This document shows, in pieces, positions 12,231-30,389 of a DNA stretch of 64,000 nucleotides. Each line of letters begins with the position of its first letter. Position 1 is the stretch's first letter. The notes beneath the pieces are model-generated. The model worked only from the letters and a program-made list of their open reading frames with translations, did no database searches and was not told where the DNA came from. A program made the position numbers and the translations under genes. Source of the stretch: Synechococcus sp. (GTDB taxonomy: Bacteria; Cyanobacteriota; Cyanobacteriia; PCC-6307; Cyanobiaceae); assembly GCA_047284725.1 (NCBI GenBank), contig JBJBEO010000001.1, positions 1,016,203 through 1,080,202 on the forward strand, given 5' to 3'.

Positions 12231-12689
12231 ATGGCGATGACTAGAGGAGCGTCTTCGGCACCAGTGCAGGACCCCCTTCAACGGGGCCTGCACCGCGATG
12301 GTCGTCGCCTCACTCCCCAGCGACAAACAATTCTCGCGTTGTTCGAGCAGATCGGTGCTGGCCGCCATCTGAGTGCTGAGGATGTGCACCAGCGGTTGCT
12401 TGAGTCCGGCACCAAGGTGTCCCTCGCCACGATCTATCGCACCTTGCGCCTGCTCGTTGAGATGGGCTTCCTGCAGGAGTTGGAACTCAGTGAAGCCGGT
12501 CGACGCTTTGAGTTGTCGTCAGGAGAGCACCGCGACCACCACCATCTCGTTTGCATCCGCTGTGGTCGCACCGAAGAGTTTGAGAACACGTCGGTGCTTG
12601 ATGCCGGTCAGACGGCTGCAGATCGGCATAGTTTTGATTTGATTGAGTCCACGCTCAATGTGCGTGGAGTCTGCCCGGATTGCCGTTGA
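12231..12689 (+). CDS. fur: Fur-family transcriptional regulator (Fur paralogue)
   Basis: RLTPQR, HLSAEDV, SLATIYRTL, HHHLVCIRCG, CPDC. Confidence 0.9.
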   Translation: MAMTRGASSAPVQDPLQRGLHRDGRRLTPQRQTILALFEQIGAGRHLSAEDVHQRLLESGTKVSLATIYRTLRLLVEMGFLQELELSEAGRRFELSSGEHRDHHHLVCIRCGRTEEFENTSVLDAGQTAADRHSFDLIESTLNVRGVCPDCR

Positions 12690-13245: not shown

Positions 13246-14241
13246 TCAGCTGAGAGCTCCACCACAGCTGCTGCCGCTTCCGGCTGTGCAACCGAAACAA
13301 TGCTCGGCCACCGTGATCGGTTGCTGTTCGATCTGTTCCGCGTTGCTGTTGAGCAGATCCTCCAGCGTCTGGGCCTCGGCTCCGCAAGTTAATCCCAGTT
13401 GTTGATTGAAGTCGCAGTCGTAGAGGGCTCCCTGCCAATCGACGCTCAGCAGGGAGCGGCACATCACCGCCTGGAGATTGTCGACCCGGAATGACTGGCG
13501 CAGAAGTTGCCGGTACTCCAGCAGTTGCCCTTTCTGTTCGAGGTCTCTGGCGAAGCGTTCGATCGCCATGTTGGTGATTGTGAGCAGCTGGTTGAACTGA
13601 ATGCCATGGTCGCGTTGGAGCGCTTCCCGATAGTGCGCTTCCAGGCCTGCCTGGGCTGGAGGGAGGCTTGGCCCCGCAGGGTTGTAGACCAGATCGAGCG
13701 CTAATCCCCTTTGGGGGTTGCCGAAGCCAAGACGGTTGAGTTGCTTCAAGCCTTCAATGCTGCGTTCAAAGACACCTCCTCCGCGTTGACGGTCGACCCT
13801 CTGTTGTTCCGTGCAGGGGAGTGACGCCACCACATGAACACCTTCGCTAGCGAGAAACGCTGCCAGATCCTCCTGTCCTGGTTCGTTGAGGATGGTGAGG
13901 TTGCACCGATCAATCACCTCCACGCCGAGGCTGCGGGCGGCCCTCACCAGATCGCGAAAACGGGGATGCAGTTCCGGGGCTCCACCGGTGAGGTCGAGCA
14001 CCTTGAGCTTGAGATGCTGCAACACCTGGGGAATCAGATCAATGTGGCGATCGGCCATCATTTCCCTGCGCCAGGGTCCTGCATTCACGTGGCAGTGACT
14101 GCAGCTTTGATTGCAGCGGTAGCCGAGGTTGACCTGAAGCGTTTGCAGGGTGCTTCGGTGGAGTGAAGGAAACAGCGTCGGTGCGGTGGAGGCTGGGGTG
14201 CTGTTGGGGTTTGACGTGATCAGAGGACCCCTCAGAAGCAA
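13246..14241 (-). CDS. arsS: Radical SAM / Cys-rich protein, arsenosugar-biosynthesis ArsS family
   Basis: TLQVNLGYRCNQSCSHCHV, LTGGAPELHP, YDCDFNQ, HCFGCTAGSGSSCGG; start uncertain. Confidence 0.85.
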   Translation of the reverse strand: MLLRGPLITSNPNSTPASTAPTLFPSLHRSTLQTLQVNLGYRCNQSCSHCHVNAGPWRREMMADRHIDLIPQVLQHLKLKVLDLTGGAPELHPRFRDLVRAARSLGVEVIDRCNLTILNEPGQEDLAAFLASEGVHVVASLPCTEQQRVDRQRGGGVFERSIEGLKQLNRLGFGNPQRGLALDLVYNPAGPSLPPAQAGLEAHYREALQRDHGIQFNQLLTITNMAIERFARDLEQKGQLLEYRQLLRQSFRVDNLQAVMCRSLLSVDWQGALYDCDFNQQLGLTCGAEAQTLEDLLNSNAEQIEQQPITVAEHCFGCTAGSGSSCGGALS

Positions 14242-14348
14242 GCACCATTGTGAAAGATCAGGTGTGCCTGCATCGTTTGCGGTTCTGTTCTCTGAGGTGC
14301 ACCTGTTGGTGCAGGTCGTGGGATCTGAGGCCGCTTGACGGCCGACCA

Positions 14349-15551
14349 TCAGGCCGTTCGAGCGGCGAGCTGGCGGAACCACTGCACATAGTGCCGTGGC
14401 CCCCCAGGCATCAACACGTTGACCTGCAGTGGATCTTCGGGATCGCTGATGCCTCGAAGGTCGGGATCAGCGAGGCTCGGTCGATCCACTTCGCCGCCGC
14501 TGCTGTCCACCAGCACCACGCGGTTGGGCTGGTTGTAGCGCTCTCCGATTTCCTGGAGCAGGCTGAGGAAACCTCGGTCACTGCCGCCGCGCAACCAGGT
14601 GCCAGTCTCAGAGCAGAAGGTGGAGGTGACGGTATCGCCAATGCCGACAAGAAGGGGCATTTGGTCAAGGGGGATGGCCTGCTCGCAGAGCTTCAGCAGT
14701 TCTTCGTGGTCATGGGGAGCTGTGCGCACGTTGAAATCGTCCCCAAGAGGGGCCGTCCCGGTGCGAGCGGCGATATGGCGATTGATCAACACCAACAGGC
14801 CGGCCTCCTTGATGGCCCCGCGCAGCATGAATTGAATGTCGGTTGAGCCCACATCACCGGGTTGAGCCGGTTTCAGGCGCTCCTGTCCGGCAGCATCACG
14901 CCCCAGATTGGGGGCCACGTGGAGAAAGAAGGAGCTGCCCAGGCCATGGTCCGTGGCCTGCACGAGCAGGTCTTGCATCAGGTCCTCCAGCATGTGCTGC
15001 AGGGCCTGTTGCAGGCTGACGTCGTTGGGGCAGAGCGCAAACAGTCCGTTGAGATTGATGGTGGGAGATACCTGGGTGTCGAGCACCGCCTTGGTCACTT
15101 CCTGGCGCAACACGTCGTTTGGCAAGGACGGCATCAGCGGGGCAACTCGCGTCTCCAGTGCGGTTTCCATCCGCTTTGGCAAGGCAGCCAGAAATGCCAT
15201 CTCTGCTTCACTGACGCCGGGATGCGACAACTGGCCGTGATTGTCTTGCAGTTGAACCCCTCCAGCTGCAAGGCCTGGAAGGTAAAGCCCGTCGCGCGCT
15301 GCCCGGTCGGGATCTCCCAGGGCCTGTTCCACCAGTCGATTCACCCCTCGCTTGCCTTCGTGCTCACCGTTGGTGAGGACGAAGAAATGTCCGCTCATCT
15401 GTGCCACCGCCTCGACGTAGTCGGGATCCATCCGGCGGGTCAGGGGATCCTTCACCAGCTCCATGCAGACGCCATCGAGGTCTTGAACGATGAGCAGGTT
15501 GTCGATGCCTGAGATCTCGTTCAGCAGTTCATCAGGAGTCAATCTCGGCAC
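14349..15551 (-). CDS. stpA: Glucosylglycerol-phosphate phosphatase
   Basis: LIVQDLDGVCMELVKDPL HAD motif, LTNGEHEG, VGIGDTVTS, RGGSDRGFL. Confidence 0.93.
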   Translation of the reverse strand: MPRLTPDELLNEISGIDNLLIVQDLDGVCMELVKDPLTRRMDPDYVEAVAQMSGHFFVLTNGEHEGKRGVNRLVEQALGDPDRAARDGLYLPGLAAGGVQLQDNHGQLSHPGVSEAEMAFLAALPKRMETALETRVAPLMPSLPNDVLRQEVTKAVLDTQVSPTINLNGLFALCPNDVSLQQALQHMLEDLMQDLLVQATDHGLGSSFFLHVAPNLGRDAAGQERLKPAQPGDVGSTDIQFMLRGAIKEAGLLVLINRHIAARTGTAPLGDDFNVRTAPHDHEELLKLCEQAIPLDQMPLLVGIGDTVTSTFCSETGTWLRGGSDRGFLSLLQEIGERYNQPNRVVLVDSSGGEVDRPSLADPDLRGISDPEDPLQVNVLMPGGPRHYVQWFRQLAARTA

Positions 15552-15749
15552 AGCGGGGCTTGGGCACGACGTTTAAGCCCTGGACCCTACGCCAGATTTT
15601 TGGAGGGTTGTCTGGGTGGACTCCAACCATGCAGCCTGGGGTCTGAGGCTCCGAGACGTCCCCTGGCGGGTCAACAGCAAGGTCTGCGTTGACGACTGTC
15701 AGGCACCTTGAGGGCACACTGGAGTCTGCTCTCGGATGGCCGGGTCGTT

Positions 15750-15992
15750 GTGCCTGATTTCAACAGCTCTGAAGAAAAGCGAGCCCGATTCGGAAAAGTG
15801 TTCGCCCCCCGCATCGAGAAGTTGATCGAGGATCTTCAGGCTGTGGCGAAAACGGCCAATTTGGACATCTATGAATTTGACGATGCCCTTGTCAAAAAAC
15901 TCTTCGTTGAGCTGGCTCGTCGCTTCAGAACCACGGCCCATCGGTTTGGTATTGAATTTGAGATCAGTGTGGAGGGTGAAGTCGTGGAGTAG
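15750..15992 (+). CDS. Hypothetical protein
   Basis: VPDFNSSEEKRARFGKVFAPRIEKLIEDL...; coding-like composition. Confidence 0.65.
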   Translation: MPDFNSSEEKRARFGKVFAPRIEKLIEDLQAVAKTANLDIYEFDDALVKKLFVELARRFRTTAHRFGIEFEISVEGEVVE

Positions 15993-16347
15993 TGATCGCC
16001 CGCTTCTCCATCGATCGCGTCTTTGGCTTCACCCTCCCTGGCCTCATCCGGCCACGTTGTTGCAGCGTTGCAGGAGTCGAACCTCCTGTTCGACCATCAA
16101 TTGATGCAGAGAGGCGGCGGGCATCAGTCCACCAAGGGTTGCAGACCGGTTGCTGGGCAGGGCCACCAGCCAGCCCTGCGGTTTCGAGGCCGATGACCGA
16201 CTCACAACAGACGACAAGCGATGCATAGGCGTTGCGATTGAGATGACGATGGACGTGCCCTGGATTGGCGGGTCATGACGTCATAGAGCCCTATCGGCTA
16301 GTGTGCTATGAGCAAAGTGGCCTATTTGCTCTTGTCTTGCCTGGGCT

Positions 16348-16935
16348 TTAGGCGGGAAGTCCCATGGCCTTGCGGTAGGCCGGTCGTTGTTGCACCGATG
16401 CGATCAAAGCCTGGATTGTTGGGTAGGGACTGAGGTCAAGCTCGGGGAAGAACACAGGCAGGTAGGCCAGGTAGGCCTGCACGGCGCAGTCAGCGGCCCC
16501 CCACTGCTCTCCCACCAGTGGCGTCTGGAGGTCAAGCATCCGATCGAGCTCGGCCATCAGGCGAGCAAACTCCCGCTCCCGGTTGCTTGGCACAAACAGA
16601 GCAATGGCCAATGTGGCATTGGCGAAGAGCAGCCATTGTGCCGTCAAGGCCCGTTCAGCCTCTGATCGGATGTCGTTGCTGTGACGCTCTGCCAGATGCA
16701 AGAGAATCGCACCGCTTTCAAACAGCTTGAGTGGTTCGCCATTCGGATCAGGCACGCTCGGATCCACGAGGGCAGGCAGCTTGCCGAAAGGGTTGACGGC
16801 GAGAAATTCCGGCTGCTGGTGTTGTCTGGCCTGGAGATCCAGCTCGATCAGTGCATAGCTGATGCCCTTCTCCTCCATGTACCAGCGGGGCATCGAGGCT
16901 CTTGTGCGTTGACCGCCGTAGAGGGTGAGGGGCAT
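16348..16935 (-). CDS. Glutathione S-transferase
   Basis: NPFGKLPAL, LFESGAILLHLAE, WGAADC. Confidence 0.92.
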   Translation of the reverse strand: MPLTLYGGQRTRASMPRWYMEEKGISYALIELDLQARQHQQPEFLAVNPFGKLPALVDPSVPDPNGEPLKLFESGAILLHLAERHSNDIRSEAERALTAQWLLFANATLAIALFVPSNREREFARLMAELDRMLDLQTPLVGEQWGAADCAVQAYLAYLPVFFPELDLSPYPTIQALIASVQQRPAYRKAMGLPA

Positions 16936-16991
16936 CGCTCTTGCTGCTTAGGGTGTAACCGGATCATGGTGCAGGGGCTGGGACGCAACGG

Positions 16992-18530
16992 ATGACGCTC
17001 GAGAAGGGTTTAGACAGCAACGCCTTTTTTCCCCGCAGCCTTGATGGCGATCTGATCAAGCAGCGCATCCTCGACCTGGAGACAGGCAAGGTGGGCTTCT
17101 ACAGCGTGGGCCTGTATCCAGCTTCGCTGGCGTACAACTGCGCTATGCAGCAGGCCACCGAGCACAGCCTGATGTTGGCACCGCGCCCGGGCCGTGCCTT
17201 GCTGGGAGCCTTCCCTTCAGCTGCGCGTGAGGGCATGGATGCCACCCATGTGGCCTGTCTTGAGCGAATGGCGACCCACCTGGAGGGTGATGCACGGGTC
17301 CCCAACACCCTCGGTGATGTGATTCGGGAGTGCGAGCTCGTGGTGCTTGCCGCCAACAGCAATCACATTGAAGAAGATCTCCAGGAGGCTTGCCGTCTCC
17401 GGCGGGCCTTGGGTCGTGACCACGTGGTGCTGGCCTGTCTGGCCGGCTCCTTCACCCACGACCCCATCACCAATGAGTCCTACGTGTTGTGTGAGCGCGA
17501 GCCGAATCTCGCCTTCTTTTCCGGCTTCCATCGCCACGGCGCACTGCGCAATCCGCTCGATAGCTTCACGGCCAACTTCTGCCATCCGAATGCGCTCACC
17601 GCTCTGCTGGGTGCGCGCATGCTCGATCGCCTGTCTCCCAACATTCAGGTATCCCCAGGCGTTCACAACGTCGAGGGGCAGTACATCAAGGCGGCCAAGA
17701 ACATGTCCTCGGTGTTCGCCGGCTTTGGCTACGCCTACCACCAGGACAATCCCGGCGTGCTGCCCACCCTGCTCACGCTTTTGCTTGATCAATGCCTGGA
17801 TCAGGCTGCCACGGTGTCGATGGCACGCCGCGATCGCCAACGCCTCTACAACCGCCAGCCTTTCCCGCTCACGGAACTGGGTTACGGGGTTCAGAGGATC
17901 GAGGCCGCACTGGTGCGAGGTGGGGACATGGAGAAAGTGCGTGACCACACGTTTGCGCAGCTCACCGCGATGGTGGCCGATGTGCGCGGCAGCATGATGC
18001 TGCCCGTTTCGGGAACACCCACTCGTAATTTCCAGGCCGGTCAAGTGCTCGCTGATCGCATGCGCGATCTGAAACGCTGTCCGACGTCCATGGAAGAACT
18101 GGAACAGTGGTGTGAAGAGCAGGGGTTGCGCAAGGGTGGCCTCGAGGGGCTGAAAGCGCTGCGGTACTGGCCGCAGATCGTGCGCAAATACGCCATTCCG
18201 GTGCATGACGCTTCCATGGTGAATCTGCTTTACATGGCGATTTATGGAAAGCCGTCCACCAAGCAGGTGGCGTTTTCGGTGATGTCTGATAGCCGTGAGT
18301 TATCGGCCTACTGTCAGGAATCGGTCCGGCCCACGCACAGCCGGCGCTATGCCGAGGCGTTGCAGAACCTGCAGCAACCTGAGGCGATGGATCTGATTGT
18401 CAACGCGGTGATTGCCGATAATGCCCGCAAGGCGATCCGCGACGATCTTGCCCTCGAGGAAGGCAGTGAAGCAACGGATCCACCGGCCTATCTCCGTGCC
18501 ATGCACGTGATCGAAACCGCTCTCGATTGA
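16992..18530 (+). CDS. 512-aa protein, probable divergent NAD(P)-dependent glycerol-3-phosphate dehydrogenase (GpsA) fold
   Basis: Strong coding bias; colinear GpsA-like motifs LAFFSG, AAKNMSSVFAG, VADV, TRNFQAG, LEG. Confidence 0.6.
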   Translation: MTLEKGLDSNAFFPRSLDGDLIKQRILDLETGKVGFYSVGLYPASLAYNCAMQQATEHSLMLAPRPGRALLGAFPSAAREGMDATHVACLERMATHLEGDARVPNTLGDVIRECELVVLAANSNHIEEDLQEACRLRRALGRDHVVLACLAGSFTHDPITNESYVLCEREPNLAFFSGFHRHGALRNPLDSFTANFCHPNALTALLGARMLDRLSPNIQVSPGVHNVEGQYIKAAKNMSSVFAGFGYAYHQDNPGVLPTLLTLLLDQCLDQAATVSMARRDRQRLYNRQPFPLTELGYGVQRIEAALVRGGDMEKVRDHTFAQLTAMVADVRGSMMLPVSGTPTRNFQAGQVLADRMRDLKRCPTSMEELEQWCEEQGLRKGGLEGLKALRYWPQIVRKYAIPVHDASMVNLLYMAIYGKPSTKQVAFSVMSDSRELSAYCQESVRPTHSRRYAEALQNLQQPEAMDLIVNAVIADNARKAIRDDLALEEGSEATDPPAYLRAMHVIETALD

Positions 18531-18531
18531 G

Positions 18532-21243
18532 TCACCTCAGTTCAACAACGGCATCGGCAACAGCGCGGTAGGGGTCTCCATCACAGCTGAGCACGACCAC
18601 CTGCAGTCCATCGTCTGCGGCTTGGCGCAACATTGACAACACCGCTTGCAAACGGGTTGGGTCGGTATTGCTGAAGGCATCGTCGAACAGCACAGGTAGA
18701 CAACCGTCGTGGCCCGTGCGCAAGGTGTCGGCCAGGGCTAGACGCAGCGCCGCGTTGAGTTGCTCCCTCATTCCCCCGCTGAGGTTGGCAAAGGGCAGGG
18801 TGAGGCCATCCCGTTGGAGGCGTAAATCTCCTAGCCCGTTCTTGGCGTCATAACTGAGGCTGCACAGGGCATCGGGCTGAGGCAGCAGTGGCCCGAGGTA
18901 GTGGGCAATGCTGCGGCTGAGCGGTGCGGTGTAGCGCTGCGATAAGTCGCTGCGTGCGGTGTCGAACAGGTTCAGGAGATGCTGGTGCGCCTTCACCTGC
19001 AGCGCTTCATTGCTGTGGGCCCGTCGTGCCTGCTCCAGCTGGGTGCGAGCTTCCTCGGCATGGGCGTAGGGATCCCGGCGACCCAGGCTGTTGCAACGCT
19101 CCCGCAGGGCACCCCGCTCTGAACTCAGGCTCTGCAGGCGTTCCTGCAGTTGCTGCAGCTGTTGTTGCACCGCGTTCAGCCGGCGTGCGATCGCCGCTTC
19201 TGGGTCGTTGTTGGATCCATCAGCCTGGGGCAAGGCTTTCAGCTGCTGCTGCAAGTTGCCGATCTGTTCCTCCAGCTGCTGGAGGTCAGCGGTGATGCGT
19301 TCTGCGTCGCCGTGATCGCGAATCAAGGCGAGGCGCTGTTGATCAAGGCTGCGGATTTCTGCTGTCAGGGCTTCGCGTTGCAGTTGCAAAGCCTGTTGCT
19401 GCTGCTGTTGCCCCTTGAGCAAGGTCTCCTGTTGTTCCAGTTGCTGCAGAAGGGATTGGCGTCGTTCGTTCGTCTCGCGGTAGTGCTGGCGGCAGGTGAT
19501 CAGAGCTTGTTGAATGGCCTCCGCATCCTGAGGCGAAAGCCTTTCACTGGTTGCCTGAGCGCCATCGTTGAGCTCTTGCTCCAGGCTCTGGAGGCGTTCT
19601 CGTGCCGATGCCTCTTCGGCTTTGATGACCTTCTGATCATCGGCTTCAGGGGTTTGCTGCTGGAGCAGTGATTGGCGGGTGAGTAACTCCATGCGCTGTC
19701 GGCCACGGGCCTCCAGTTCGGCAACGCTGTCGGCCTGCCAGTGGCTGAGGCTCGCTTGGATGGTTTGTGTGAGCGCTTGATGCTCACGATGGATCGCCTC
19801 CAGGCCGTCGCCTCCCCCCGGGGCGATCCGCAGTTTCACGCCCTTGCCCACGGTCAGGGAGAAGGTGTTGGTGCGCCGCTGGGACTCCCCTGGCTCCATT
19901 GGGGCGTCATCGAGGCGCACCTGTTGATCACTGCACTCGAGGGTCACCACCGCAGCCATGGCATCACTTCGGATGGCGAGGGCTTCGAGTTGGCGCGTCT
20001 GGTCCTGCAACGTGACCAGGGCCTCATGCTCTGGGGCCCGGAGGCTGCTGAGGGCCGCGGTGATCTCCTTGTGTTGGCGCTCCCAGCTCAGCAACTGTTG
20101 TTGCTGCCGGTCCAGTTGCGTGAGGCGTTGTTCCAGCTGCAAGCGTTCCTCCAGGCGACGCAGCTGCTGACCTCGCAGTTCAAGGCCACTGCGCTTCTGC
20201 TCCAGTTGATCGCGGCCAAGCATCAACTGCTTCACGGCGTCGCTTTGCTCCACCAGCAGGCGTTGGAGGCGCTCCAGTCCGGCGGTGACACGGACGTTCT
20301 GCTGCTGTTGGTTCGCCAATGTCTGTTCGGTCTCCCGGAGCCGACGCAGTTGCAGTTGCAGTTGTTGGCGTTGCTGACTGAGAGGCGTGAGCTGCTGCTC
20401 CACTGCCTGGCGTGCGGCCTTGGCCTGGGCCTGTTGCCGCTGCTCGTCGAGCAGCTGGTTCTGTTTTTGCTCCAGCTGCGGTTTGCGCTCTTGTTCCAGC
20501 TGGCGCTGTTCGTCGTCGAGGGCATCGAGGCTGGTGCTTGCCTCCTCGTAGTCGTGCAGCTCAGCCGTGGCGGAGGCAAGTCGCTCCTCACTGGCCTTCA
20601 AGGCCTGTTCGCAGTGCCAAAGAACGCTCTGATGGCGAGTCCCTCGCGTGGTCAGGCTTGAGGACACCAATTGCTCAAGCCGGTCGTGCAGCTGTTGATC
20701 CAGAGGCGATTGCAGAGCAGCATCAGCTCCTTGCTCGAGTTGGTCGATCAGGCTGCGCAGGTCGTAGTGCTCGCCACCGAGCTTGAGCAGATCGCGGCCT
20801 CCTTCCCCCTGCATCACCCAGAGGTGGGCCCAGCGTGTGGGAAGCACCCGTCCTGCCTGGCGACTGCCGATGATCTCATCAACACCCAGCAGTGTTGCAA
20901 GCTGCTCTTCGGCTTCGCTGCCGAGGCGGGCAGGCTCGCCCGCACCGTTCAAGCTCGTCGTGCCGCTCTGGCCGCTGAAGCGTTTTTGAAGCATCCAGCT
21001 GCGGCCTTTGGCTTCGAAGTTGAGGGTTACCTGGGGATGACCACTGTGTTGCAGCGACCGCAGCTGCTGCACGGGAGCTCCCGTGGCGTTGCCGCGTAGA
21101 AAGAGGGTCCGGTGCAGGGCCTCCACCAGGGAGCTTTTGCCGCTTTCGTTGGCGCCTGTGATCAGGGTCAGGCCTGGATGGAAGTCCAGCTTCAGCGCGG
21201 CATGGCGGCGAATGCTGTGGAGATCGCAGCTGAGTAGCTTCAC
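18532..21243 (-). CDS. SbcC/Rad50-like (YhaN-type) coiled-coil ABC ATPase
   Basis: Walker A GANESGKS, long Q/E/L coiled coil, signature LSGGMREQ, Walker B VLFDDAF. Confidence 0.88.
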   Translation of the reverse strand: MKLLSCDLHSIRRHAALKLDFHPGLTLITGANESGKSSLVEALHRTLFLRGNATGAPVQQLRSLQHSGHPQVTLNFEAKGRSWMLQKRFSGQSGTTSLNGAGEPARLGSEAEEQLATLLGVDEIIGSRQAGRVLPTRWAHLWVMQGEGGRDLLKLGGEHYDLRSLIDQLEQGADAALQSPLDQQLHDRLEQLVSSSLTTRGTRHQSVLWHCEQALKASEERLASATAELHDYEEASTSLDALDDEQRQLEQERKPQLEQKQNQLLDEQRQQAQAKAARQAVEQQLTPLSQQRQQLQLQLRRLRETEQTLANQQQQNVRVTAGLERLQRLLVEQSDAVKQLMLGRDQLEQKRSGLELRGQQLRRLEERLQLEQRLTQLDRQQQQLLSWERQHKEITAALSSLRAPEHEALVTLQDQTRQLEALAIRSDAMAAVVTLECSDQQVRLDDAPMEPGESQRRTNTFSLTVGKGVKLRIAPGGGDGLEAIHREHQALTQTIQASLSHWQADSVAELEARGRQRMELLTRQSLLQQQTPEADDQKVIKAEEASARERLQSLEQELNDGAQATSERLSPQDAEAIQQALITCRQHYRETNERRQSLLQQLEQQETLLKGQQQQQQALQLQREALTAEIRSLDQQRLALIRDHGDAERITADLQQLEEQIGNLQQQLKALPQADGSNNDPEAAIARRLNAVQQQLQQLQERLQSLSSERGALRERCNSLGRRDPYAHAEEARTQLEQARRAHSNEALQVKAHQHLLNLFDTARSDLSQRYTAPLSRSIAHYLGPLLPQPDALCSLSYDAKNGLGDLRLQRDGLTLPFANLSGGMREQLNAALRLALADTLRTGHDGCLPVLFDDAFSNTDPTRLQAVLSMLRQAADDGLQVVVLSCDGDPYRAVADAVVELR

Positions 21244-22445
21244 ACCGCCATCTCCTGGTCACAGGGCGACTGGGCACCAGCGCTGAGGCGATGCAGTTCA
21301 TACAACGCTGTCTCCAGCAGGGCAACTTGGTCGTGCTGGTCGGGGGGCGTCTGCTCGAGGGTTTGCTGCAGTTGCCGGGCAATGCTGCCCATCAATGGGG
21401 CCTCTGAACGATCCAGAAGCGTGCTGAGCTCAGTGGCTTCCGGGCGCCTGTGGCATTGGCCTCGAACGCGCAGGTGGAGCAGTCGGGTGCGTAACCGGGT
21501 CAGGATTTGTTCGAGTTGCTGGTGATCGACCAGCCCAAGCTGTCCGTCGATTTCGAGCCGCAGCAGGTCACGTCCCACCCGTCGTTTGGTGAGCGTTGTG
21601 ATCCGCTGCTGCAAGCGCTCGAGGTCGTTGCGTCCCCTCAACTGTATTCGTTCGTTGTGCCACTGCATGCTTGCGGTGCTGATCGTTTCGACCTCGGGTG
21701 TTTGGCCCCGCTCCACGTCGGCGATCAGCACTTGGCCGCGCTGATCGTCCTCACTGGAGGGGAAGCGGTCTGGTTCAGGGGTGCCGGGATACCACCCTTT
21801 TGGTGGCACGGCCTTGAAGGCATGCCAGTCGCCTAAGGCGAGGTAGTCGTAGGCCCCGCTGTCCCAGCGGGCTGGATGCAATTGATTGGTTCCCGCGCGT
21901 GTGTCGTTGTCGTAGTCAACGGCGGAAAAGCCCTGAATGGAGCCATGGGCCAGCACCACCCGGGCCTGATCAGGGTCAAGGCTGTCCCAGTCGAAATGGT
22001 CCAGCCAGGCGCCAGGACTCAACGTCTCATGTTGGCGTCGCAGTGGACAGGGCAGCACCGTGATTCCGGCGATGCCAAGGGGTTCAGGTTTTAGCAGCAA
22101 CCGCAGATTGGTGGCTCTTTGGAGCATCTCCTGTTGCACATCCGGACGGCGCCAGACACCGCCAGCACCACCATGGTCGTGATTGCCAGGAATGACCAGC
22201 ACGGGGGTGTTGATCGAGCCGATCAGCTCCAGCACCTCCATCACCAGGGCGCCATCCACGGTGCTGCTGTCGAATAAGTCTCCAGCCACGAGCACCGCAT
22301 CAATGGCGCGTTCTTCAACAAGTTCAATGATGCGTTCGACGGCCTCCATGCGCGCCCGTTGCAGTCGACTGCGCCGCTCGGGGTCTTCGATCCAGCGATA
22401 GGGCTTACCGATTTGCCAGTCAGCGGTGTGGAGCAGACGAGGCAC
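21240..22445 (-). CDS. SbcD/Mre11-like metallophosphoesterase nuclease
   Basis: LHTADWQIG, VAGDLFD, PGNHD, LAHGS, ALGDWH, YPGTPE; 4-nt overlap with the ATPase gene. Confidence 0.9.
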   Translation of the reverse strand: MPRLLHTADWQIGKPYRWIEDPERRSRLQRARMEAVERIIELVEERAIDAVLVAGDLFDSSTVDGALVMEVLELIGSINTPVLVIPGNHDHGGAGGVWRRPDVQQEMLQRATNLRLLLKPEPLGIAGITVLPCPLRRQHETLSPGAWLDHFDWDSLDPDQARVVLAHGSIQGFSAVDYDNDTRAGTNQLHPARWDSGAYDYLALGDWHAFKAVPPKGWYPGTPEPDRFPSSEDDQRGQVLIADVERGQTPEVETISTASMQWHNERIQLRGRNDLERLQQRITTLTKRRVGRDLLRLEIDGQLGLVDHQQLEQILTRLRTRLLHLRVRGQCHRRPEATELSTLLDRSEAPLMGSIARQLQQTLEQTPPDQHDQVALLETALYELHRLSAGAQSPCDQEMAV

Positions 22446-22840: not shown

Positions 22841-24013
22841 ATGCGATCCGTTGTGACCCTGGCCGCCTCGAGCACCGGACGCCACCTTGAGGTCATCGCG
22901 GGTCGATTTCATCCGCCGGAACAGATCGACGCGATCCACCCGATCGGCTCGGGCAACGTCAATGACACGTTTTTGGTGCGGCTCGCGGTCGCAACCGCAG
23001 AAGGATCTGATGCGTTTGTGATGCAACGGTTGAACACTGATGTGTTCAACCGTCCAGATCTTGTGATGGGCAATCTGATCGCTCTCGGCAGTCATGTGCA
23101 GGAGCGGATGGCGACAGGCATGCCTGAGCTGCAGGGGCGTCGCTGGGAAGTGCCCCGGGTGATCCCCGCCCGCGGTGATCACGGGCATTGGGTGGAACAC
23201 GAGGGCCAGTTCTGGCGTTCGATTTCCTACATCGATGCCGCGATTGCCCATGACGTCATTTGCGATGCCAAGCATGCGCGGGAGGTTGGTTACGGGCTGG
23301 GAACGTTCCATCACTTGATCAGTGATCTGCCTGTTGCCCAGCTCGCTGACACCCTTGAGGGGTTTCACGTTACGCCAGTATATCTAGATCGTTACGACAC
23401 CGTGCTTGATCGTTGGTTGGATCGTGCTGAGCCCCGTGAAGTCACTGAATCGCGCCTGGTGTCAGCTCTGGCCTTCGTGGCCGATGGGCGTGATGGGGCT
23501 GATGTGCTCGAGGCGGCCTGTCGGCGCGGTGAACTTCAGCGCCGGCCGATTCATGGTGATCCCAAGATCAACAACGTGATGATCGATGCAGGTAGTGGTC
23601 AAGCAGTGGGGCTGATTGACCTCGACACCGTCAAGCCTGGTTTGGTGCACTACGACATTGGCGATTGCCTGCGCTCATGTTGCAATCCTGTGGGGGAAGA
23701 AGTCACTGATCTCACGACTGTTCGCTTTGATCTGGACCTCTGCCGGTCGATCCTCGAGGGGTATCTCACCGTTGCGAGTTCGTTTCTCTCCCCTGCCGAT
23801 GTGTCGTACCTCCCCGCCTGCATCCGCTTGATTCCTTTTGAGCTTGGTCTGCGCTTTCTCACCGACCATCTCGACGGTGATCGTTATTTCAAGGTGGAGA
23901 AGCGTGGTCAGAATCTCGATCGTGCCCTTGTGCAGTTCTCCCTGATGCGGTCCATTGAGGACCAGTTCGAGGCCATTGAATCCCTCGTGCAGCAGCTCAC
24001 CGGCCCTCTCTGA
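22841..24013 (+). CDS. Aminoglycoside-phosphotransferase-fold kinase (N-acetylhexosamine-kinase-like)
   Basis: GSGNVNDTF, QRLNTDVF, IHGDPKINN, LIDLDTVKPG, ELGLRFLTDHLDGDRYFK. Confidence 0.85.
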   Translation: MRSVVTLAASSTGRHLEVIAGRFHPPEQIDAIHPIGSGNVNDTFLVRLAVATAEGSDAFVMQRLNTDVFNRPDLVMGNLIALGSHVQERMATGMPELQGRRWEVPRVIPARGDHGHWVEHEGQFWRSISYIDAAIAHDVICDAKHAREVGYGLGTFHHLISDLPVAQLADTLEGFHVTPVYLDRYDTVLDRWLDRAEPREVTESRLVSALAFVADGRDGADVLEAACRRGELQRRPIHGDPKINNVMIDAGSGQAVGLIDLDTVKPGLVHYDIGDCLRSCCNPVGEEVTDLTTVRFDLDLCRSILEGYLTVASSFLSPADVSYLPACIRLIPFELGLRFLTDHLDGDRYFKVEKRGQNLDRALVQFSLMRSIEDQFEAIESLVQQLTGPL

Positions 24014-29182: not shown

Positions 29183-29204
29183 TCGCTGATCTTCTGAATA
29201 GCTG

Positions 29205-30389
29205 ATGGGATTGTCTTTCTCGTTGTCTCGAATACCCACAATTCACTGTGGAACAGGCATTCTCGACAACATCACCGATTGGCTGGTCGGGCGACATGCA
29301 AAGTTTGTCCTGCTGGTCACCGGCTCGTCCTCGCTTGAAAGGCATGGACATCTGGGCAGAGTCCGGCATTTAATCTCCAACTCGGGAGCCACTTTTGAGC
29401 ATATCCAAAGTCAAGGCGAACCCGGCTCGGATTTTGTTGATGCTGTTTCGCAACGACTTCATTCGCAGAAGCTGGATGCGGTGATCGCTGTTGGAGGAGG
29501 CAGTGCCATTGATCTGGGGAAGGCCTTGGCGGCAATGATTCCTGTTGGAAATTCAGTCCTGGATCATCTTGAGGGGGTTGGAAAAGGAATCAGCCATGGC
29601 GGCGAGATGCTTCCCTATCTGGCGATCCCTACAACCTCTGGAACCGGTGGTGAGGTCTCTAAAAATGCTGTTTTAAGTCAGGTTGGAGTTGATGGATACA
29701 AGAAATCATTGAGGCATGAAAATTTCATTCCTCATGCTGTCATTTTAGACAGTGACTTGCTGATCGAGACTGAGCCCGAGATAACGGCTGCGTGCGGAAT
29801 GGATGCCTTGACGCAACTCCTGGAACCCTATTTTTCTGATCTGGCATCTCCAATCACCGATGCCATCGTTTGGAGCGGACTGGAGTCATTGGTGCCAAAC
29901 CTGCTGGCTGCGTGTGGTGATGGAGCGGGACGTCACGACGTACGACTGGCGATGGCGTATGGAGCTCTTTGTTCCGGGATCGGCCTGGCAAACGCGGGGC
30001 TCGGCATTGTTCATGGTCTAGCGGGGCCTATCGGTGGCTGGTTTGATATCCCTCATGGGGTGATCTGTGGCACGTTGATTGGTTCGGCTCAACGGCAGAA
30101 TTGGTTGGCCATTCAGGATCGCGCGCCTCACCATCCGGTGATCAGGCGAATGGCACGGGTTGGCAGCTTGATGCCAGGCGCTGAAGCGATCAAGGATGAG
30201 TTTCAGCTTGTTGAGCACCTGACCACCAAGCTTGAGCAATGGGTTGATGCTCTTGCCATTCCACGACTTGGTGTCTTCGGGTTGAAATCCGAAGATCTGG
30301 ATCGTCTTGTTCTTGCGGCCAGTAATCGCAACAATCCAATTCAACTGTCAGCGACAGAGATCAGATGTTTGCTGGAAAGGCGCCTCTAA
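29205..30389 (+). CDS. Iron-containing alcohol dehydrogenase
   Basis: AVGGGSAIDLGK, IPTTSGTGGEVS, GMDALTQ, GLGIVHGLA, IPHG. Confidence 0.92.
   Translation: MGLSFSLSRIPTIHCGTGILDNITDWLVGRHAKFVLLVTGSSSLERHGHLGRVRHLISNSGATFEHIQSQGEPGSDFVDAVSQRLHSQKLDAVIAVGGGSAIDLGKALAAMIPVGNSVLDHLEGVGKGISHGGEMLPYLAIPTTSGTGGEVSKNAVLSQVGVDGYKKSLRHENFIPHAVILDSDLLIETEPEITAACGMDALTQLLEPYFSDLASPITDAIVWSGLESLVPNLLAACGDGAGRHDVRLAMAYGALCSGIGLANAGLGIVHGLAGPIGGWFDIPHGVICGTLIGSAQRQNWLAIQDRAPHHPVIRRMARVGSLMPGAEAIKDEFQLVEHLTTKLEQWVDALAIPRLGVFGLKSEDLDRLVLAASNRNNPIQLSATEIRCLLERRL

Follow-up and report, generated by a model that had tools for sequence, protein, structure and literature searches.

A candidate glycerol-3-phosphate dehydrogenase family of unrecognised sequence encoded near stpA in picocyanobacteria

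The window analysed here is a 64,000-nucleotide stretch of the genome of Synechococcus sp. (assembly GCA_047284725.1, contig JBJBEO010000001.1, positions 1,016,203 to 1,080,202 of the forward strand), and our subject is an open reading frame (ORF) for a 512-residue protein that lies near stpA, the gene for glucosylglycerol-phosphate phosphatase. A first-pass annotation, made from the letters alone, had correctly located this ORF, which runs on the plus strand from an ATG start (Table 1), and had read its product as a deeply divergent dehydrogenase with the fold of GpsA, the bacterial glycerol-3-phosphate (G3P) dehydrogenase. A structural model bears out that fold, and the model together with the distribution of the gene leads us to propose that the protein is probably a deeply divergent dihydroxyacetone phosphate (DHAP) reductase that supplies G3P.

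The family ORF and its predicted fold

The start codon of the family ORF is the earliest past an in-frame stop and gives an N-terminus that is common to its closest relatives. A word-indexed search, in which 8000 candidates were scored, returned 636 homologues at E ≤ 0.001; the best 120 of these are 72–100% identical to the query over at least 97% of its length, are 494–532 residues long and, where they carry any name, are called 'hypothetical' or 'uncharacterised'. When 1.84 billion cluster representatives were searched exhaustively, 137 matches came back, mostly fragments of the same family and none of them a canonical GpsA. The non-fragment relatives were P0121 (62% identity), P0148 (676 residues, 31%) and P0155 (662 residues, 30%), with a further relative, P0238 (379 residues, 31%), whose sequence looks garbled. 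The family is narrow, strongly conserved, centred on cyanobacteria and unannotated, and we found no paper assigning it a function in the literature covered, which excludes most subscription journals.

Sequence models gave no assignment. A whole-protein scan found no Pfam family above threshold, the two GpsA domains PF01210 and PF07479 were unmatched even at E ≤ 1 and gave no match at the locus in six-frame genome searches, and no NCBIfam model matched. Searching PDB sequences with the ORF alone gave 0 matches at E ≤ 10, and doing so with a profile of 26 family sequences (A2) gave one irrelevant match (E 3.1). A Pfam match to pPIWI_RE_Y (E 7.7e-4) was rejected as chance, its 20.3 bits lying below the cut-off of 26.7 and no stretch of it passing alone.

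The predicted structure, by contrast with these sequence searches, points to one enzyme class. An AlphaFold2 model built from the 26-sequence alignment has a mean pLDDT of 81.5 and a pTM of 0.82, and a Foldseek search of the PDB with it fills ranks 1–25 with NAD-dependent G3P dehydrogenases alone (E 7.4e-9 to 1.3e-5; target TM 0.60–0.71), among them human GPD1 and GPD1L, the enzymes of yeast, Leishmania, Plasmodium, Dunaliella and Archaeoglobus, and GpsA of Coxiella and Thermotoga; other enzymes made of a Rossmann and a helical domain start only at E 1.7e-5, with a TM of about 0.42–0.46. VIA-align superposed the model on 16 of 16 G3P dehydrogenase entries at Z 20.9–26.2 and an rmsd of 3.0–4.0, with 298–332 residues aligned to targets 312–357 residues long (531 for the Dunaliella fusion chain 6iuy_B), and the next-best fold, that of ketopantoate reductase, reached Z 13.5. 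The aligned span, model residues ~26–451 (starts at 26–32, ends at 439–451), takes in essentially whole target chains, so that in the prediction a Rossmann domain and a helical domain like the C-terminal domain of 6-phosphogluconate dehydrogenase (6PGD) superpose along the whole chain. In the ESM Atlas, after the family's own clusters, all named matches listed were clusters with PF01210 and PF07479 (score 0.91–0.93; 171–181 of 256 features), a likeness that by the tool's own caveats is a lead and no proof. On this model we are nearly certain that the family ORF has the fold of NAD-dependent G3P dehydrogenases.

This fold match, rather than the motifs themselves, is what lifts the motif observations of the first-pass annotation above chance. 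We compared the family with a profile (A3) built from 20 cyanobacterial proteins of the canonical GpsA type. Unaided, hhalign paired LGDVIRECELVVLAANSN with the beta3 region of GpsA (sub-segment E 0.0012), S177-G178 with the GpsA 'SG', T344-R345-N346 with the phosphate-binding 'SRN', E385-G386 with 'EG', Y414 with the GpsA Tyr and G152 with GpsA K85. When the N-terminus was excised, S38, G40 and P43 fell on the glycines of GxGxxG (GpsA G13, G15 and G18) and R65 on the Arg of 'WSR', and K236-N237 came into register with the GpsA K-N pair when the matching helix was aligned alone (E 0.077). The whole-length alignment jumps one beta-alpha-beta unit and therefore misregisters the K236-N237 region; the order of secondary structure in the model (strands 174–177 and 192–197, helix 201–212, strand 218–223 and the long helix 226–249) appears to place K236-N237 at the K-N helix of GpsA. 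Of the seven motif pairs put forward in the first-pass annotation, that of VADV with LGDL was not reproduced; hhalign sets S334, and not D330, against the active-site Asp of GpsA.

The residues themselves are strongly conserved. In a 16-member alignment of diverse relatives down to 27% identity, which includes five from Prochlorococcus-like genomes as well as P0148 and P0155 (27–29%), G40, Y42, N122, S123, G178, F179, H180, K236, N237, D330, S334, T344, R345, N346, E385 and G386 are invariant in 16 of 16. The first-pass annotation had staked its reading on the fold and on retention of the catalytic Lys, Asp and Arg-Asn; the predicted structure has that fold, and K, D and RN are invariant in the homologues, so neither of the refuting outcomes it had named occurred. 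It was likewise right that the family has an altered dinucleotide loop and no 'TKG' Lys, with S38/G40/P43 instead of the GxGxxG fingerprint and G152 or A151 at the place of the Lys, and that there are a central insertion and a C-terminal extension. The insertion, a beta-hairpin region at residues ~279–320 of the helical domain, is modelled with lower confidence, and the extension, of low model confidence, carries a conserved YCQESVRPxHSRxY stretch. R65 and R68 are invariant in 22 cyanobacterial family members (alignment A1) and not in P0148 or P0155; they may form the site for the 2'-phosphate of NADPH, and it is from these two residues that a preference for NADPH would follow. P0148 and P0155 keep 'AKG' at the TKG place and the second and third Gly of GxGxxG (G-x-x-G), and P0148 is the sole relative with any match to PF01210, albeit a sub-threshold one (E 0.0094; 16.4 bits against a cut-off of 23.1). 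Together these features form a bridge to canonical GpsA and fit divergence from a GpsA-like ancestor.

The degenerate nucleotide-binding fingerprint and the loss of one catalytic Lys could also speak for a GpsA relative that has lost catalysis and serves a structural or regulatory purpose. Against this, the polar side chains of the predicted active site do not vary across 27–100% identity, nor does the middle Gly of the fingerprint, and even the smallest genomes searched (1.6–1.7 Mb) keep the family; we consider such a pseudoenzyme very improbable.

Table 1. Features of the family ORF and its surroundings in the window
Feature	Position	Strand	Remarks
Family ORF	16992..18530	+	ATG start, 512 aa
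N-terminal Rossmann-like nucleotide-binding domain (predicted)	17076..17666	+	residues ~29–225; from the model; insertion after beta2 (~69–100)
Degenerate dinucleotide loop S38-V-G40-L-Y42-P43	17103..17120	+	replaces GxGxxG, middle Gly alone kept
R65-P-G-R68	17184..17195	+	end of beta2; basic residues at place of GpsA 'WSR'
L150-A151-G152	17442..17450	+	place of lost GpsA 'TKG' Lys
S177-G178-F179-H180	17520..17531	+	replaces GpsA 'SGPN'
C-terminal helical domain, predicted catalytic	17667..18326	+	residues ~226–445; from the model
K236-N237, proposed catalytic Lys-Asn pair	17697..17702	+	start of long helix
D330-V-R-G-S334	17979..17993	+	Asp and Ser both invariant, spaced by one helical turn
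T344-R345-N346	18021..18029	+	counterpart of GpsA 'SRN' phosphate-binding motif
C-terminal extension, not in canonical GpsA	18327..18527	+	residues ~446–512; from model and alignments
Exact-match run contigs over family gene area	16795..17306		uncovered parts carry no meaning
stpA, glucosylglycerol-phosphate phosphatase	14349..15551	-	Pfam Salt_tol_Pase E 1.4e-173; TIGR02399 577.5 bits
Glutathione S-transferase gene	16348..16935	-	Pfam GST_N E 1.3e-17; between stpA and family gene
Gap between stpA and glutathione S-transferase gene	15552..16347		~800 bases
94-codon frame in this gap	15708..15992	+	no other long ORF in the gap
Deepest exact-match contigs in this gap	15739..16260		from cDNA-labelled libraries
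ArsS-type radical SAM gene	13246..14382	-	TIGR04167 E 2e-133; adjoins stpA
Fur-family regulator	12231..12689	+	near stpA
sbcD-sbcC pair	18532..22445	-	inserted between family and APH genes
APH-family phosphotransferase gene	22841..24013	+	
Iron-containing alcohol dehydrogenase gene	29202..30386	+	Fe-ADH E 3e-33; also matches Fe-ADH_2

Distribution of the family and of canonical GpsA

The first-pass annotation had proposed checking the genome for a canonical gpsA, and the host genome, a single contig of 2,581,549 bases that is 99.98% complete, is without one. Whole-genome searches with PF01210 and PF07479 gave no match while detecting their controls, tblastn with four cyanobacterial GpsA proteins reached a best E of 0.006 over 39 residues, and the GpsA profile of 20 cyanobacterial proteins found nothing at E ≤ 0.01. 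The tblastn patch, at ~1.55 Mb, was considered as a gpsA remnant and rejected, since it lies at the tail of an open frame of 168 codons that shows no similarity elsewhere. Both glpK and glpD are present in this genome.

We then sampled the class at large, in 301 genomes at least 90% complete, 31 of them from the taxonomic family of the picocyanobacteria (host included) and 270 from outside it. PF01210 was found in 276 of the 301 and the family gene in 41. Among the 31 picocyanobacterial genomes the family gene occurs in 26, and the other five all have a strong PF01210 match (E 2.3e-10 to 2.3e-14); in the 26 that bear the family gene, PF01210 is strong in two, weak (E 1e-4 to 1e-5) in five and without a match in 19. 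The weak matches were weighed as possible GpsA proteins and set aside: a weak match of this kind retrieved from a same-genus genome is a 291-residue epimerase/dehydratase of the short-chain dehydrogenase/reductase (SDR) type (PF01370), and the others agree with it in frame size or model range.

We also surveyed 81 picocyanobacterial genomes, drawn from 36 genera and each at least 90% complete. The family gene is present in 44 of them, the GpsA C-terminal domain (GpsA_C) in 48, stpA in 45, glpK in 31, glpD (DAO_C) in the identical 31, and a GT20 gene of the ggpS type in 33, namely the 31 with glpK and glpD plus two weaker matches. Thirty-one genomes have the family gene only, 35 GpsA only, 13 both and two neither, which gives a Fisher p of 7.6e-10 for the family against GpsA_C if related genomes, which are not independent, are counted singly. 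By genus, the family alone is found in 15, GpsA alone in 13, both or a mixture in six, and two contain the 'neither' cases. In these two genomes (90% and 94% complete) the stpA contigs are just 3324 and 3231 bases long and end at the expected start of the family gene; no genome of this sample with an unbroken locus is without both family and GpsA. GpsA_C was not found in the genomes of Prochlorococcus sp. MIT 0707, Prochlorococcus sp. AG-363-N20 and Synechococcus WH7803, and it is present in those of Synechococcus sp. RCC307 and Cyanobium sp. CH-040.

Two of the genomes that carry both genes show one of them in decay. In G348 the family gene is in frameshifted pieces without residues ~258–401, stpA is also in pieces, and gpsA is apparently whole (PF07479 1–141 in an open 333-codon frame with no stops). 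In G365 gpsA is frameshifted, its C-domain match ending at model position 60 with a TAG, and the family gene looks whole. Fourteen small-genome Prochlorococcus-like genomes have the family gene and stpA, with none of GpsA, GlpK, GlpD and GgpS found, and no Prochlorococcus-like genome searched was without the family. Five of those 14 were examined for PlsY, an enzyme that requires G3P, and all five have it.

Outside the picocyanobacteria the family gene occurs in 15 of 270 genomes, and stpA in 14 of these 15 versus 63 of the 270 overall; a PF01210 match is missing in six of the 270. One genome (G291, 98% complete) has the family gene and glpK and neither GpsA domain, and its congener G284 has both enzymes. 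Another (G225) has two family copies and, of gpsA, a GpsA_C remnant with three stops only. A third (G133) was considered as a replacement of gpsA and rejected, its GpsA_C fragment lying on a short contig as a draft artefact.

Gene neighbourhood and the link to glucosylglycerol

In the window, stpA is the upstream, divergent neighbour of the family gene, with a glutathione S-transferase (GST) gene in between; this GST gene does not lie between the two in Prochlorococcus-like loci and is no part of the system. We examined 80 loci from species-representative genomes, all cyanobacterial in sequence. In 46 of them an oppositely oriented stpA occurs no more than 7 kb upstream of the family gene; where the upstream flank extends to 5 kb or more, this holds for 41 of 60 loci. 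Fourteen of the 46 have fewer than 400 bases between the two genes, and in five Prochlorococcus-like genomes, each from a different genus, the two are directly divergent. Five genomes of two genera have an island in which glpK, glpD, a GH13 glycosidase gene and stpA face, divergently, the family gene, an ABC ATPase gene and two permease genes, and glpK, glpD, stpA and ggpS are all neighbours of the family gene in four of the 80 loci, with all but ggpS in a fifth. In G153, a non-picocyanobacterium, the order is ggpS-glpD-family on one strand. The order fur, arsS, stpA, family gene, APH-kinase, metB, metA is common to the window and Prochlorococcus-like loci. Because synteny among picocyanobacteria is high, adjacency within that group amounts to roughly one observation, and what context contributes independently is G153 and the co-occurrence with stpA across the class.

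The first-pass annotation had tied the ORF to glucosylglycerol through stpA. That tie holds well beyond the window. Unforeseen by that annotation, the family is also universal in the Prochlorococcus-like genomes searched, which have no ggpS; a core role in general G3P supply is therefore more likely than one in feeding glucosylglycerol alone. Full-length Salt_tol_Pase genes (E 1e-149 to 1e-172) stand directly divergent from the family gene at L046:3027-4262 (-), L047:3102-4343 (-), L048:3061-4275 (-), L051:2954-4219 (-) and L050:6303-7526 (+), in Prochlorococcus-like genomes where ggpS was not found. The dehydrogenase and the StpA-like phosphatase might in Prochlorococcus form a conserved two-gene module that works without GgpS, taking DHAP by way of G3P to free glycerol, for which the phosphatase-dehydrogenase fusion of Dunaliella offers a comparison, or making a glycerol-containing solute independently of GgpS, and the lost TKG Lys, the new His/Arg loop and the conserved tail could then reflect changed chemistry or regulation. 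We regard such a module as a speculative and unlikely possibility.

The islands bear on a further alternative, that the protein is a true DHAP reductase but one that serves glucosylglycerol synthesis under salt stress only, lipids obtaining their G3P through glycerol kinase or the FAD-dependent GlpD/GlpA. In its favour, the family gene sits in glucosylglycerol and glycerol islands, the host genome has glpK and glpD, and the excerpts of Cabello-Yeves et al. 2022 (PMC9361551) on which we draw describe gpsA as missing from marine and brackish picocyanobacteria, a FAD-dependent glpA as the marine/brackish 'variant', an NADPH-dependent gpsA in freshwater ones, both glpA and gpsA in brackish SC5.2 strains, and glycerol kinase in all marine and brackish isolates. 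A figure legend in Kirsch et al. 2019 (PMC6753628) places glpD, glpK and gpsA among genes co-localised with ggpS in various cyanobacteria, and another excerpt of that paper has most Prochlorococcus without key glucosylglycerol genes. Yet 14 of the 44 family-bearing genomes keep the gene without glpK, glpD and ggpS. GlpD, furthermore, runs in the direction of G3P oxidation, with a quinone as the acceptor, and we know of no steady source of glycerol for GlpK in an autotroph. We therefore judge a role confined to salt stress to be improbable.

Several other features of these loci deserve mention. The gap of ~800 bases between stpA and the GST gene contains no long ORF besides a 94-codon frame and includes the deepest exact-match contigs from cDNA-labelled libraries; Rfam gave no match at E ≤ 1 on 15400–17100. 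In other picocyanobacteria the family gene is followed, in the same orientation, by an APH-family phosphotransferase gene (L047:6146-7294; L048:5962-7131, with a 3-base gap; L052:6039-7190), and in the window an sbcD-sbcC pair is inserted between the two. The GH13 gene of the islands, of the alpha-amylase family and encoding 599 residues, lies between glpD and stpA at L039:5317-7113 (-) and in the same place in L040, L043, L044 and L045. In the literature, gghA is reported as absent from Synechococcus genomes and GH13_18 glucosylglycerol phosphorylases are described in heterotrophs, so that the island gene could encode a glucosylglycerol-degrading enzyme. Five contigs (L064, L076, L079, L096 and L111) of metagenome-assembled genomes labelled Salipiger bermudensis or Gammaproteobacteria carry a family gene 75–88% identical to the Synechococcus protein, four of them with stpA beside it, and look like mis-binned picocyanobacterial contigs. 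In G304, a non-picocyanobacterium, the family gene (L054:4521-6068, +) interrupts a cluster for lipid and outer-membrane biosynthesis, with lpxB-lpxA on one side and fabZ-lpxC-bamA on the other, and is oriented against them. The window also holds, some distance downstream, a gene for an iron-containing alcohol dehydrogenase that matches Fe-ADH_2, which we take to be the family of glycerol and glycerol-1-phosphate dehydrogenases.

Proposed role and comparison with known enzymes

Our preferred reading, conversion of DHAP to G3P, rests on four observations: the phosphate-binding and apparently the Lys-Asn residues are retained; every picocyanobacterial genome with an unbroken locus has the family or GpsA; one gene decays where the other is present; and 14 genomes lack any other known G3P source. 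The family would then probably be the G3P-making version used by marine Synechococcus and Prochlorococcus, which are without the ordinary enzyme. In the mechanism we propose, the Rossmann domain would bind NAD(P)H, probably NADPH, and DHAP would occupy the interdomain cleft, where T344-R345-N346 would grip its phosphate and K236-N237 together with D330/S334 would polarise its carbonyl; hydride transfer would then yield sn-glycerol-3-phosphate. The gene may have begun, or persisted, as an isozyme that supplied G3P in connection with glucosylglycerol metabolism (stpA, ggpS, glpD, glpK), and where marine Synechococcus and Prochlorococcus lost gpsA it may have become the sole source of G3P for membrane lipids. 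The ORF with its conservation, predicted fold, conserved residues, distribution and gene context, and the lack of gpsA, are what the analysis shows; substrate, cofactor, reaction direction and essentiality are what we infer.

Several results weigh against this proposal. The hhalign comparison of whole family and GpsA profiles is not significant (E 0.038, probability 1.4%), nor is that of the core (E 0.022), probabilities for these comparisons being 1–2%; by domain and under greedy or global settings, too, significance was never reached, and the global mode gave nonsense. Either D330 or S334 may stand for the active-site Asp of GpsA, and the placing of K236, N237, D330 and R345 along the cleft is what we infer from the order of elements and sub-segment alignments. 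The active site is remodelled, with the TKG Lys lost, GxGxxG reduced to one Gly and SGPN changed to SGFH, so that use of DHAP and NAD(P)H is not assured. The complementarity with gpsA has its own weaknesses. Given the kinship and synteny of picocyanobacteria, gpsA may have been lost in one or a few events, and the Fisher p overstates the case; moreover, the family tracks stpA (43 of 44 genomes) as tightly as it avoids gpsA, and membership of a marine salt package is a confounder of the complementarity. An stpA-like gene beside the family gene where ggpS was not found may mean that the pair does something other than supply G3P. One genome of another cyanobacterial family (G034, 99% complete, 80 contigs) yielded none of GpsA (N- or C-domain or profile), GlpK and the family gene, and two further genomes, one in family f2 and one in family f3, matched neither PF01210 nor the family; either the assemblies hide a gene or cyanobacteria have another route to G3P. 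Finally, the sequencing runs examined do not show expression of the family gene: four runs, kept as contigs, hold 7–26% of the sampled words, and three of them are flagged 'probably DNA'.

A rival reading is that the protein has the same fold but reduces another small phosphorylated carbonyl compound, working with the StpA-like phosphatase in a compatible-solute or related pathway, while G3P for lipids in gpsA-less picocyanobacteria comes by an unrecognised route. The alternative offered by the first-pass annotation, a new sugar-phosphate reductase, is likewise conceivable. The remodelled site, the new conserved loops and the conserved C-terminal extension fit such a change of substrate, as do the near-perfect co-occurrence with stpA, the joint decay of the family gene and stpA in G348, the pair kept where ggpS was not found, and G034, which is without every known G3P-forming enzyme searched for and in which a further route is conceivable. 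What argues for DHAP instead is that neither the phosphate-binding T-R-N nor the K-N pair varies, that G3P dehydrogenases are by far the best structural matches within the superfamily, that picocyanobacteria with an unbroken locus never lack both genes, and that gpsA is decayed or gone only where the family is present (G365, G225 and G291). The remodelled active site, the tie to stpA without ggpS and the exception of G034 keep the other-substrate reading alive, but we consider it rather unlikely, and we continue with DHAP reduction as the preferred reaction.

Few phototrophs on Earth are as abundant as Prochlorococcus and marine Synechococcus, and each of their membrane glycerolipids needs sn-glycerol-3-phosphate. 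For the essential step that is missing there, in the most abundant phototrophs of the sea, the family provides a concrete candidate. If the proposal is correct, it would close a gap in metabolic models: in the reaction table of the Prochlorococcus model iJC568 (PMC5111396), 'Glycerone phosphate' takes part in four reactions, none of which forms G3P, and a reversible G3P phosphohydrolase is listed with no gene attached. The supplements of iSO595 (PMC7900632), which may exclude the model file, gave no match for the terms searched. The proposal, if correct, would also add to the G3P dehydrogenase superfamily a family with an unusual nucleotide loop and active site, and would provide a case in which an osmolyte-linked isozyme replaced the housekeeping enzyme during genome streamlining.

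Among known systems, bacterial GpsA (EC 1.1.1.94; PF01210 and PF07479) is alike in its two-domain fold (3k96_A, Z 26.2 over 310 of 326 residues; 1z82_A, Z 24.4), in the order of its motifs, with T/S-R-N, E-G and apparently K-N kept, and in an occurrence across genomes that is complementary to that of the family. It differs in having no detectable sequence-profile match with the family ORF and in its length of ~310–340 residues, compared with 512 for a protein that has insertions after beta2 and at ~279–320 and a C-terminal extension of ~65 residues; its GxGxxG, TKG Lys and SGPN correspond to SxGxxP, a lost Lys and SGFH. The eukaryotic cytosolic enzyme GPD1 (EC 1.1.1.8; 1x0v, 6e90, 4fgw and 1evy) gives Z 20.9–23.9 over 313–324 aligned residues and the top Foldseek E (7e-9), but is only 12–14% identical, and the family ORF is without a counterpart of human K120, which we take to be the equivalent of the TKG Lys of GpsA and to matter for catalysis. 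A parallel in concept is Dunaliella salina DsGPDH (6iuy), a fusion of a phosphatase and a G3P dehydrogenase. Its dehydrogenase part is alike in structure (Z 22.1; Foldseek E 3.4e-8), and its coupling of a G3P dehydrogenase to a phosphatase in an osmolyte pathway resembles the pairing of the family gene with stpA, although here the phosphatase is encoded by a separate, divergently transcribed gene of another family (Salt_tol_Pase). Ketopantoate reductase, pyrroline-5-carboxylate (P5C) reductase and other 6PGD-like proteins share the combination of a Rossmann and a helical C-terminal domain, but their matches are far weaker and partial (Z 11–13.5), and they are not the nearest relatives of the family ORF. 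Set beside all of these, the family is an unrecognised and very divergent one whose fold and proposed reaction class are both already known.

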